Assembly: GCA_036149055.1 (NCBI GenBank)
Contig: JAYZQJ010000191.1
Span: 11,716 to 43,715, forward strand
Reading direction: 5' to 3'
Length of the DNA: 32,000 bases
From: Myxococcota bacterium
Lineage (GTDB): Bacteria; Myxococcota_A; Polyangia; Polyangiales; Sandaracinaceae
A program made the position numbers and the translations under genes. Within the stretch, counting starts at the first letter, position 1; each line of letters opens with the position of its first letter. The notes under the pieces were generated by a model. The model was not told the origin of the DNA and made no database searches. It saw nothing but the letters and a program-made list of their open reading frames with translations. Positions 3,707 to 6,220 of the stretch are shown piece after piece.

Positions 3707-6220
3707 GTGACGAGCAGTATCTCCGGTCTCTACCGGCTCACCCTCGAGGAGCGTCGCGAGCGCATCCGGCGGGCCACGGGCCTCGACGCCGACGCGCTCG
3801 GTCGGCTCGAGCCCGACGACGGGCTCTCCGGTGCCCAGGCCGATCGCATGGTCGAGAACGCCCTCGGGGTGTTCGGTCTGCCCTTCGGCGTCTGCGTCAA
3901 CATGCAGATCGACGGCCGCGACGTGCTCGCGCCGATGGTGGTCGAGGAGCCGAGCGTCATCGCCGCGTGCTCCTACGCCGCCAAGCTCCTCCGGGCCGGC
4001 GGCGGCGTCGAGGCGGAGTGCAGCGAGCCGCGCGTCATCGGGCAGCTCCAGCTCATGGAGGTCGCGGACCCGAAGGCGGCCACCGAGGCGATCCTCGGCG
4101 CCGAGGAGGAGCTGCTCGCGCTCGCCAGCGCCGGGCACCCGCGCCTCGCCAAGGCCGGCGGCGGCGCCCGGGCGATCCGGGTCCGCGAGCTGCCGCGCAT
4201 CGAGGCGGACGATCCCTGCGGCGACATGCTCGTCGTGCACCTCTCGGTCGACGTGCGCGACGCGATGGGCGCCAACGCGGTGAACTCGATGTGCGAGCGG
4301 ATCGCGCCCCGGGTGGCCGAGCTCAGCGGCGGCCGGGTCGCGCTGCGCATCCTCTCGAACCTCACCGACGAGCGCACCGTCACGGTGGTGGGCCGGGTCC
4401 CGTTCTCGCTGCTCGACGGCAAGGGCACGGCCAACGGCGAGGAGCTCGCCAAGCGCATCGAGGAGGCCAGCGTCTTCGCCGAGCGCGACCCCTACCGCGC
4501 CTGCACTCACAACAAGGGCATCATGAACGGCGTCGACGCGGCGCTGATCGCCCTCGGCCAGGACTGGCGCGCGGTCGAGGCCGGCGCGCACGCCTACGCC
4601 GCCAAGGACGGCCGCTACACCGCGATGGCGCGCTGGCGGGTCGAGGACGGCCACCTCGTGGGCCGCATGACCATCCCGCTCGCGGTCGGCACCGTCGGGG
4701 GCGTGGCCAAGTCGCACCCGGTCGTCGCCGTGGCCCGCGACATCGCGCAGGCGAGCTGCGCCGAGGACGTGGCCAAGCTCTGCGCCGCGGTCGGCCTCGC
4801 CCAGAACCTGGGCGCGCTCCGGGCGCTCGCCGCCGAGGGCATCCAGCGCGGGCACATGCGCCTGCACGCCCGCAACGTCGCGATCGAGGCGGGCGCCGCC
4901 GAGCACGAGGTGCTCGAGGTGGCCAAGCGCATCGCGGACGCCGGTCAGGTCAACGCGCGGCACGCCGCCGCGGTCATTCGCGAGATCCGCGGCGCGGGGG
5001 CGGCCGAGCCGGCCCCGATCGCGATCGCCGCCCGGGCGCCGAGGAAGCGCCCCCCCACCCCGGCGACGCCGCCGATCGAGACGATCGAGGAGGACGAGAT
5101 GAGCGAGCTGCGACCCATCGAGCACGAGCTCGGAGGCACGATCCTGGTCACCGGCGCGGCCGGACACCTCGGCGCCAACCTGGTGCACCGGCTCCTCGAA
5201 GAGGAGGGCGTGCGGGTTCGCGTGCTGCTCCGCGAGGGCTCGAACAACGCGGCGATGGACGGCCTCCCGGTCGAGCGCGTGTACGGCGATCTCCGCGATC
5301 GCGACGCGCTCGGGCCGGCGGTCGAGGGCTGCCGCTACGTCTTCCACGCGGCCGCGCAGCTCTCCACCGTGGAGCCGACCCCCGAGATCCGCCGCGAGGT
5401 GTGGGAGAGCAACGTGCTCGGCACCCGCAACGTGCTCGCCGCCGCCCGCGAGGCGAACGTCGAGCGCGTCGTCGTGACCGGCAGCTTCAGCGCGACCGGC
5501 TACGACCTCGACGACCCGAGCGTGGCCGGCGACGAGTCGATGCCGTTCTGGCCCTTCGACGACTCGCTCCCCTACGTGCACAGCAAGGTGCTCACCGAGC
5601 ACGAGACGCTGAAGGCCTGCGTCGAGGGCCTCGACGCGGTCATCGTGACGAGCTGCGCGTTGCTCGGCCCGCACGACCACAAGCCGTCGCGCATGGGCCA
5701 GACGCTCATGGACTTCGCGAACGGCAAGATGCCCGCCTACATCCCGGGCGGCTTCTCGTTCGTCGCCGCGCGCGACATCGTCGAGGGTCACATCCGCGGC
5801 CTCCAGCGCGGCGCGACCGGCCAGAAGTACATCATCGCCACCCAGTACGTGGAGGTGGACGAGCTGATGGGCATCTTCGAGGAGGTCAGCGGTCACCCGC
5901 GGCCGAAGCTCCGCCTGCCGGTCGGCGTGATGGCCCCGGTGGCCGAGGTCTCGAGCTTCGTGCTCGGCAACTTCTTCCCGAAGAAGCCGCAGCGCCTCAC
6001 CCCCGCCGCGGTGAAGATCCTCAACCAGCGTCGCCGCGCCAGCTTCGAGCGGGCCCGCCGCGAGCTCGGCTACGAGCCGACGAGCATCCGCCAGGCCGTG
6101 CACGAGGCCTACGCCGACTTCGCGCGCCGCGGGCTCGTCCCCGCCCGCGAGGGCACCACCGAGGCGCCGGTCACCGAGCGCAGCGAAGAGAGCCGCGCCC
6201 GCGCGGCCACCGGGAGCTGA
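3707..6220 (+). CDS. Fusion protein: class II (NAD(P)H) HMG-CoA reductase (aa 1-430) + extended SDR, HpnA/3beta-hydroxysteroid-dehydrogenase-like NAD-dependent epimerase/dehydratase family (aa 465-837)
   Basis: It starts at GTG with SD GAGGAGG. Class II HMGR catalytic motifs are present: VVEEPSV (Glu), THNKGIMNG (Lys), GQDWRAVEAG (Asp), EGIQRGHMRLHARN (His), and ENALGVFGLPFGV...QIDGRDVLAPMV. After a Pro/Ala/Arg linker come the SDR motifs VTGAAGHLGANLV (TGxxGxxG) and YVHSK (YxxxK). It is a single uninterrupted frame with high GC3 throughout. Confidence 0.92.
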   Translation: MTSSISGLYRLTLEERRERIRRATGLDADALGRLEPDDGLSGAQADRMVENALGVFGLPFGVCVNMQIDGRDVLAPMVVEEPSVIAACSYAAKLLRAGGGVEAECSEPRVIGQLQLMEVADPKAATEAILGAEEELLALASAGHPRLAKAGGGARAIRVRELPRIEADDPCGDMLVVHLSVDVRDAMGANAVNSMCERIAPRVAELSGGRVALRILSNLTDERTVTVVGRVPFSLLDGKGTANGEELAKRIEEASVFAERDPYRACTHNKGIMNGVDAALIALGQDWRAVEAGAHAYAAKDGRYTAMARWRVEDGHLVGRMTIPLAVGTVGGVAKSHPVVAVARDIAQASCAEDVAKLCAAVGLAQNLGALRALAAEGIQRGHMRLHARNVAIEAGAAEHEVLEVAKRIADAGQVNARHAAAVIREIRGAGAAEPAPIAIAARAPRKRPPTPATPPIETIEEDEMSELRPIEHELGGTILVTGAAGHLGANLVHRLLEEEGVRVRVLLREGSNNAAMDGLPVERVYGDLRDRDALGPAVEGCRYVFHAAAQLSTVEPTPEIRREVWESNVLGTRNVLAAAREANVERVVVTGSFSATGYDLDDPSVAGDESMPFWPFDDSLPYVHSKVLTEHETLKACVEGLDAVIVTSCALLGPHDHKPSRMGQTLMDFANGKMPAYIPGGFSFVAARDIVEGHIRGLQRGATGQKYIIATQYVEVDELMGIFEEVSGHPRPKLRLPVGVMAPVAEVSSFVLGNFFPKKPQRLTPAAVKILNQRRRASFERARRELGYEPTSIRQAVHEAYADFARRGLVPAREGTTEAPVTERSEESRARAATGS
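5087..5101 (+). promoter_or_regulatory. In-frame internal Shine-Dalgarno (GAGGAGG) + ATG at the HMGR/SDR domain junction
   Basis: GAGGAGG (5087-5093) is followed by 5 nt and then ATG (5099-5101). That ATG encodes the Met of MSELRPIEHELGGTILVTGAAG, the exact start of the SDR domain. Whether it functions as an internal start is untested. Confidence 0.35.

Follow-up and report, generated by a model that had tools for sequence, protein, structure and literature searches.

A conserved fusion of HMG-CoA reductase and an SdmB-type dehydrogenase in a Sandaracinaceae sterol operon, with a candidate internal start site at its junction

Cholesterol synthesis by bacteria of the Myxococcota is under study because the eukaryotic pathway may derive from it. 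Removal of the C-4 methyl groups of bacterial sterols has been attributed to the proteins SdmA and SdmB in Methylococcus capsulatus, Calothrix sp. NIES-4105 and Enhygromyxa salina (PMC10202945; Lee et al. 2018, as reported by a citing paper). SdmB is reported to carry out both the oxidative decarboxylation and the re-reduction of the 3-ketone, and the SdmAB pair of Calothrix sp. NIES-4105 was shown to take off both C-4 methyl groups, whereas in eukaryotes the 3-ketoreductase is a separate enzyme, ERG27, and ERG25, a non-haem iron oxidase, is required as well (PMC10202945). Sandaracinus amylolyticus makes cholesterol, its geranylgeranyl reductase (GGR) gene encodes the sterol C-24 reductase Bsr, and SdmAB are stated to account for C-4 demethylation (Lee & Welander 2025, PMC12004948). 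In this paper we analyse a window of 32,000 nucleotides, the whole stretch of DNA examined, taken from contig JAYZQJ010000191.1 of a Myxococcota bacterium of the family Sandaracinaceae. The first gene of a sterol operon in this window, at 3707-6220, joins a class II HMG-CoA reductase (HMGR) in one open reading frame (ORF) to an extended short-chain dehydrogenase/reductase (SDR) that we assign to SdmB.

The SDR domain of the window resembles the SdmB proteins of the known systems in being an extended SDR with the same motifs and in having SdmB as its best family match, but it differs from them in forming the C-terminal half of an HMGR fusion with no sdmA beside it. The S. amylolyticus cluster has the order FMN_dh, HMGR-SDR, Rieske, GGR, SE-OSC, ERG4/24 and SE-SQS (SE, squalene epoxidase; OSC, oxidosqualene cyclase; SQS, squalene synthase), and its fused orthologue, at 10001-12625 of locus L083, has 874 amino acids with 62% identity to the window protein. 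HMGR-SdmB, bsr and SE-OSC are common to both loci, whereas sdmA and the ERG4/ERG24 reductase are found only in S. amylolyticus. The text of Lee & Welander 2025 (PMC12004948) mentions neither HMGR nor any fusion, and we found no mention of the HMGR-SdmB fusion or its combinatorial relatives in the literature searched. Both enzymes and this type of cluster are already known; what is new is the conserved fusion architecture, its combinatorial relatives and the evidence for a retained start site. A different HMGR fusion is MvaE of Enterococcus faecalis (PDB 7m1z), where thiolase and HMGR catalyse two consecutive steps and the partner is located at the N-terminus of HMGR. In the window, by contrast, the partner is C-terminal to HMGR and acts many steps later in the pathway.

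Domain composition and conservation of the fusion

The frame at 3707-6220 is open throughout and has a GC content at third codon positions (GC3) of 0.97, a measure used to pick out the real genes in a window with 72% G+C. Its product is predicted to consist of a complete class II HMGR, a disordered proline-rich linker and an intact extended SDR (Table 1). The HMGR half matches the Pfam family HMG-CoA_red (PF00368) with 328 bits against a cut-off of 27, over residues 13-388 and model positions 2-368, and TIGR00532 with 344 bits, above the cut-off of 260. It aligns end to end with the Pseudomonas mevalonii enzyme (1qax, residues 12-427 of 428, E=2e-109). The catalytic residues E81 (3947), K270 (4514), D286 (4562) and H383 (4853), which correspond to the established catalytic E83, K267, D283 and H381 in P. 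mevalonii, are invariant in 52 orthologues. In the SDR half, the Pfam Epimerase/3Beta_HSD match covers residues 479-710 of the 837-residue product, and the PF01073 match covers residues 480-639. The NAD(P) site TGAAGHLG (residues 482-489, nt 5150-5173) is followed by TGSFS (residues 591-595) and YVHSK (residues 623-627, nt 5573-5587), and the NAD-binding and Ser-Tyr-Lys motifs are kept across the 52 fused orthologues. The original prediction of a fusion between a complete class II HMGR and an extended SDR, made from the four catalytic HMGR motifs and from TGAAGHLG and YVHSK, is supported. An AlphaFold2 model built with the 52 orthologues gives two confident domains without a fixed inter-domain arrangement (pTM 0.48), suggesting two independent domains like beads on a string.

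The linker had been described as rich in proline, alanine and arginine, with an in-frame GAGGAGG-N5-ATG at the start of the SDR domain, and both features are present, at 4997-5098 and 5087-5101. Residues 431-464 (nt 4997-5098) read GAAEPAPIAIAARAPRKRPPTPATPPIETIEEDE, and all 34 codons have G or C in the third position. Among the orthologues the linker varies in length from 34 to 96 codons, is in frame every time and has a pooled GC3 of 0.86, as is typical of coding sequence. The sole element common to these otherwise divergent linkers is an RPPxP motif, of which R448, P449 and P452 are invariant in the 52 fused orthologues. A similar motif also precedes the SdmB domain in SQS-SdmB proteins, in the linkers of loci L016, L018, L023 and L024.

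We conclude with high confidence that HMGR-SdmB is a real and conserved fusion, old rather than recent. Among the first 68 database matches of the window protein, 58 are HMGR plus SDR proteins of 790-920 amino acids with 54-92% identity, and the closest named relatives come from metagenome-assembled genomes (MAGs) of Sandaracinaceae. The 837-residue product and the junction DNA are identical in assemblies of five separate sequencing runs. A stop codon between the two halves, for which the original prediction had asked to look, is found neither in these five independent assemblies nor in at least 13 species. The suggestion that the two genes had fused only recently does not hold: orthologues with as little as 54% identity have the fusion too, and the linkers have diverged almost completely.

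A search with an alignment of the SDR domain, run against a single genome for each species, gave 80 species loci, whose gene neighbourhoods were mapped by tblastn. HMGR and SDR share one frame in the window, in 13 species loci (GTDB) and in S. amylolyticus. Three species carry an HMGR-x-SQS-SDR protein of about 1,550 amino acids and six species an SQS-SDR protein. Locus L017 shows a split state, in which the TGA of SQS is followed by AGGAG-N9-ATG of sdmB. The remaining loci, about 50 and including all of those outside the Myxococcota, have a stand-alone sdmB. Pfam scans confirmed the SdmB fusions HMGR-SQS-SdmB, HMGR-PPS-SQS-SdmB, PPS-SQS-SdmB, SQS-SdmB and SdmB-P450 (PPS, prenyl synthase), and also HMGR-PPS and HMGR-SQS proteins. 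In Sandaracinaceae and many Polyangia, SdmB forms the C-terminal part of fusion proteins that combine it variously with HMGR, prenyl synthase and squalene synthase. Because the same domain is fused to such varied partners, the fusion appears to follow gene adjacency and not a chemistry specific to HMGR. In a quick neighbour-joining tree all the fused SdmB domains group in a single Polyangia clade, which also includes three unfused members.

A few database entries look like separate genes and were rejected as such. The stand-alone SDR entries P0266-P0269 (70-73% identity) come from contigs with only 16-93 nt ahead of the Met, in which the upstream frame is open and linker-like. The stand-alone HMGR P0072 (79% identity) is an inverted-repeat assembly artefact at a contig end. 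In locus L084 (7380-7423, contig JAYRVK010001221.1) a stop codon follows the HMGR linker 22 nt from the contig end, and this end is the reverse complement of approximately 7229-7260, about 150 nt upstream, yielding a false stand-alone HMGR entry.

Some further arrangements were observed in the survey. P0139 (732 amino acids) carries SdmB fused at its C-terminus to a P450, and in a Cyanosarcina locus (L022, 5995-8490) SDR and CYP51-like regions lie in one stop-free frame of 831 codons. In a Sandaracinaceae MAG of lower GC (L085, 6001-8280; P0080) HMGR is fused to a degenerate SDR, in which the Gly-rich NAD motif GxxGxxG and YxxxK are gone and only the C-terminal half is similar, with 27% identity. 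In clusters from Pseudomonadales-type gammaproteobacterial MAGs (L040, L046, L055, L058, L059 and L064, about 3540-4940 in each) a class II HMGR homologue with 43-46% identity is found about 1.1 kb upstream of a stand-alone sdmB-sdmA pair. Most sterol-producing bacteria use the methylerythritol phosphate (MEP) pathway (Hoshino and Gaucher).

The best NCBIfam model for the SDR domain is SdmB (NF052578), with 303.6 bits against a curated cut-off of 600. The SDR of the Calothrix sp. NIES-4105 sterol cluster, to which the window domain is 57% identical, likewise reaches only 344.8 bits. As this cluster has been tested experimentally, the cut-off must be specific to a clade, and it appears to be tuned to Methylococcales. 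Homologues of the SDR domain with 54-74% identity come from Myxococcota, Cyanobacteria and Gammaproteobacteria, and also from a few MAGs that carry other group labels. A Rieske sdmA homologue lies downstream on the same strand in 68 of the 80 species loci (directly adjacent in 57), OSC, CYP51 or SE is also present in 68 of the 80, and the synteny with sdmA, CYP51, SE and OSC spans three phyla. The eukaryotic ERG26/NSDHL enzymes belong to the same superfamily and have a chemistry analogous to that of SdmB, but they are distant relatives (NSDHL structure 6jkg, E=4e-13). HpnA has the same fold and length as the window's SDR and is the second-best model (TIGR03466), but its 246.3 bits fall under both its cut-off of 367.65 and the SdmB score, and the surroundings are those of a sterol and not of a hopanoid cluster; HpnA was rejected for these reasons. 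We likewise rejected a nucleotide-sugar epimerase, since GalE (31 bits, cut-off 262) and dTDP-glucose dehydratase (33 bits, cut-off 365) stay far below their cut-offs, and their matches fall mainly on the Rossmann part. Going by these matches the SDR half is an SdmB orthologue, to which HpnA and ERG26/NSDHL are more distant, and orthology together with synteny makes a role in C-4 demethylation quite probable. Of the original description of the SDR, as an HpnA or 3beta-HSD-like protein that could act as a sterol C-4 decarboxylase or 3-ketoreductase, the second part stands and the first does not.

The junction as a candidate internal start site

Besides a recent fusion, the original prediction had offered internal initiation at the junction as an alternative. 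The heptamer GAGGAGG by itself was rejected as evidence for a Shine-Dalgarno (SD) sequence: it occurs 37 times in the window, where it is frequent because Glu-Glu is encoded as GAGGAG. The spaced motif GAGGAGG-N5-ATG occurs once in the window against 0.09 expected, and at least once in 8 of 100 shuffles. Within the window alone this is weak evidence, and its significance comes from the comparison of orthologues.

Of 23 fused ORFs, 20 have an in-frame ATG 10-28 codons before the first Rossmann strand, where a Met content of 2.3% would predict one in 35%. It persists in about ten distinct sequence contexts, though the linkers are too divergent to be aligned. Stand-alone sdmB genes start 2-24 codons before the same strand, and the position of M465 is within this range. 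Pairing with the anti-SD sequence, computed on the 20 nt upstream of each ATG, has a median energy of about -8 kcal/mol at the junction ATGs and -4.5 kcal/mol at other internal ATGs (Mann-Whitney p=3e-6); the true starts of bsr and sdmA in the same loci have a median of -8.35 kcal/mol. In a profile from -100 to +100 nt around the junction ATG the SD signal appears only at offset 0. Most fused orthologues have a GGAG or GAGG core 5-12 nt before the ATG, and this core is held over different encoded peptides such as EEDEM, SGGSM, TRIRM and GRSFTM; this points to selection acting at the RNA level. The mRNA around the junction is also predicted to be unusually open. A 50-nt segment centred on the junction ATG folds 9.9 kcal/mol more weakly than the background of the ORF (median percentile 1.3%), and the minimum of structure sits exactly at the ATG, where the local GC content is 0.62 compared to 0.72-0.77 elsewhere. 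For the ATG at 5099 the structure z-score is 2.7.

A strong SD combined with weak structure is seen at only two of the 373 internal ATG or GTG codons in the ten-gene operon, at 5099 and at 5867. The ATG at 5867 (M721, in a conserved DELM) has an SD-like run of -14 kcal/mol and weak local structure and lies inside the SDR fold; its start-like signals are probably due to chance. At the SE|OSC, SE|SQS and P450|ferredoxin junctions of the same operon we did not find the start-site signals that are seen at 5099. A sigma-70 scan of 3300-6400 returned no internal promoter, although this kind of scan is ill-suited to the host organism.

Taken together, the conserved ATG, the SD-like pairing and the open mRNA, three signatures in the sequence, tip the balance somewhat towards internal initiation that would give a free SdmB of 373 residues beside the 88-kDa fusion. 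In-frame internal starts that give two isoforms are known from infB, clpB and cheA of Escherichia coli. The candidate described here is like them in combining an SD with an in-frame start at a domain boundary, although our case is a computational one, and the short product would be a complete and separately functional enzyme instead of a truncated isoform.

Proposed origin and competing explanations

The account that we favour, with a probability of roughly 0.6, is that HMGR-SdmB is an old fusion that arose by gene adjacency, has kept an internal start and yields two products. The N-terminal half would act as the class II HMGR of the mevalonate pathway, and a flexible linker of 35-100 residues would connect it to SdmB, an NAD(P)-dependent SDR that would decarboxylate the oxidised C-4 methyl group of sterols and re-reduce the 3-ketone. 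In the ancestral Polyangia sterol cluster sdmB may have been located directly downstream of isoprenoid and squalene genes, and this arrangement may have led to the fusion, which would then reflect the co-expression and co-assembly of operon neighbours and not a catalytic coupling with HMGR. The old sdmB start, with its SD, ATG and open mRNA, would have been retained inside the ORF, and the gene would most likely make both the 88-kDa fusion and a free SdmB of about 41 kDa from M465.

Several observations weigh against this account. The SDR domain scores under the curated SdmB cut-off. No SdmA match is present in the 32-kb window, eight fused relatives are likewise without an adjoining sdmA, and the sdmA of the window's own organism was not found among the top SdmA relatives. 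The 23 fused ORFs are related to each other, so that our statistical tests overstate their independence. The fused orthologues L005, L023 and L027 lack the junction ATG, and a free SdmB therefore cannot be essential. Several junction SD energies are weak, at -3.8 to -6 kcal/mol, and acidic or Gly/Ser-rich linker ends could give a purine-rich, weakly folding sequence for reasons that lie in the protein. An explanation that builds on the same facts is that only the full-length protein is made, with the junction signals being either the fading remains of the former sdmB start or a side effect of the amino-acid composition of the linker. The relatedness of the sequences and the three orthologues without an ATG would fit it, as would the abundance of GAGGAGG through Glu-Glu codons and the weak pairing, short of -8 kcal/mol, of roughly half the junction SDs. 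Yet it has to explain why the ATG is kept in some ten contexts despite the divergence of the linkers, why the SD core is retained over differing residues, why the SD and structure signals have their maximum right at the ATG and are as strong there as at true starts, and why the three other fusion junctions of the operon have lost any such signal. We regard this explanation as possible, but rather unlikely.

The remaining explanations concern the role and the reality of the fused SDR. The tethered domain might be mainly a regulatory or sensing module or a redox partner of HMGR and not a working enzyme of C-4 demethylation, for example by binding 4-methyl or 4-carboxy sterol intermediates to modulate HMGR, or by local recycling of NAD(P)H. 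One Sandaracinaceae MAG has a catalytically dead SDR remnant that has remained joined to HMGR. This would suit a regulatory tether, and so would the lack of an adjoining sdmA in the window and eight fused relatives; catalysis could be left to a free SdmB from the internal start. We consider this improbable, given that the SDR catalytic motifs are intact in the 52 fused orthologues, that in relatives the same domain has SQS or PPS-SQS as its partner and no HMGR, and that the AlphaFold2 model shows no fixed domain arrangement. NAD(P)H recycling had been suggested as a rationale for the fusion and finds no support: SdmB is reported both to oxidise and decarboxylate and to re-reduce, which should make it roughly redox-neutral and leave no net hydride to recycle, and the domain is fused to squalene or prenyl synthase elsewhere. 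In eukaryotes, C-4-dimethyl sterols trigger the down-regulation of HMGR through a fused sterol-sensing domain. The gene might be a bacterial counterpart of such a sterol-regulated HMGR, where a free SdmB would be accompanied by a long isoform that senses 4-methyl sterols and reports late flux to the committed step. We think of this as a long shot; if true, the dead SDR remnant and the RPPxP motif would mark a regulatory and not a catalytic tether. It is hardly credible that these are two separate genes, joined into one ORF only through faulty sequencing or assembly or because a stop codon was lost very recently. High-GC genomes do hold long stop-free frames, and some database entries do resemble a stand-alone SDR or HMGR, but these entries are contig-end starts with open upstream frames or an inverted-repeat artefact, the junction is identical in five independent assemblies, the in-frame fusion occurs in at least 13 species and an isolate genome, and the linker carries a conserved RPPxP motif. 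Just as implausible is an HpnA-type hopanoid protein or nucleotide-sugar epimerase with no link to sterols. HpnA is the second-best model and the best Pfam SDR match is the generic Epimerase family, but the HpnA score of 246 bits is under both its cut-off of 368 and the SdmB score, and GalE and the dehydratase reach about 31-33 bits where more than 260 are required. In addition, the operon cyclase fits oxidosqualene cyclase (713 bits) far better than hopene cyclase (249 bits), and the sterol synteny is found in three phyla.

For our favoured account of an old fusion with a retained start, the junction signals predict two products from one ORF. If both are made, the family would be a clean natural case for studying how the parts of a fused gene remain, or cease to be, translated independently. 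The fusion also has a practical consequence, as taking the annotation 'HMG-CoA reductase, degradative' at face value could lead surveys to miss SdmB and heterologous expression studies to mis-clone it.

Operon context and the place of sdmA

The positions of the features discussed are collected in Table 1. The rest of the operon contains three further fusion genes besides HMGR-SdmB and two SE-like domains in total. Its P450-ferredoxin fusion is like the CYP51-ferredoxin fusion of M. capsulatus, and the gene directly downstream of HMGR-SdmB occupies the position of bsr in the S. amylolyticus cluster. An Rfam scan of the window gave zero matches.

Table 1. Features of the HMGR-SdmB gene and its surroundings, in window coordinates
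Feature	Position	Strand	Remarks
Response-regulator/EAL gene (c-di-GMP phosphodiesterase)	2155-3441	-	divergent, flanks operon upstream
SD-like GAGGAGG of the fusion gene	3693-3699	+	7 nt before GTG 3707; anti-SD duplex -12.5 kcal/mol
HMGR-linker-SdmB ORF	3707-6220	+	837 aa; first gene of sterol operon; GTG start, TGA stop
Class II HMGR domain with C-terminal flap	3743-4993	+	aa 13-429
Disordered Pro/Ala/Arg-rich linker	4994-5098	+	pLDDT 31-38 for aa 430-469 (AlphaFold2)
RPPTPA (RPPxP) motif in linker	5048-5065	+	aa 448-453
Internal SD-like GAGGAGG	5087-5093	+	anti-SD duplex -11.6 kcal/mol
In-frame ATG (M465)	5099-5101	+	candidate start of free 373-aa SdmB; GAGGAGG-N5-ATG at 5087-5101
SdmB-type extended SDR domain	5138-6136	+	aa 478-810
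Disordered C-terminal tail and TGA stop	6158-6220	+	pLDDT <50 for aa 818-837
Geranylgeranyl-reductase family, Bsr homologue (sterol C-24 reductase)	6224-7345	+	TIGR02032, 157 bits
Rest of sterol operon	7345-19677	+	Pfam and NCBIfam scans
SE-like FAD domain-OSC fusion	7345-10740	+	1131 aa
SE-SQS fusion	10785-14105	+	1106 aa
FA_hydroxylase	14102-14809	+	
P450-ferredoxin fusion	14817-16487	+	556 aa
Aldehyde dehydrogenase	16502-18076	+	
GMC oxidoreductase	18073-19677	+	
Hybrid histidine kinase-receiver and S41 peptidase	19696-22833	+	downstream of operon

The operon of the window is without the Rieske sdmA and the ERG4/ERG24 reductase, and has a FA_hydroxylase, an aldehyde dehydrogenase and a GMC oxidoreductase there instead, which might carry out the oxidation of the C-4 methyl group in the place of SdmA. 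In the close relatives L002, L003, L004 and L066, as in S. amylolyticus, sdmA is present. The top SdmA relatives belong to HMGR-SdmB|SdmA|Bsr clusters of other species, which have no sample in common with the contigs of the window. An sdmA next to the fusion gene is missing from half of the HMGR-SdmB lineages. Because the SDR motifs stay conserved in these lineages, the SDR is probably still active there, with its partner oxygenase encoded elsewhere or replaced.

Successive genes of the operon share stop and start codons as TGATG or ATGA, at 7343-7347, 14102-14105 and 18073-18076. These overlaps indicate tight translational coupling, and in such a layout small indels could give fusions. The response-regulator/EAL, histidine kinase and S41 peptidase genes that flank the operon are possible candidates for its regulators.

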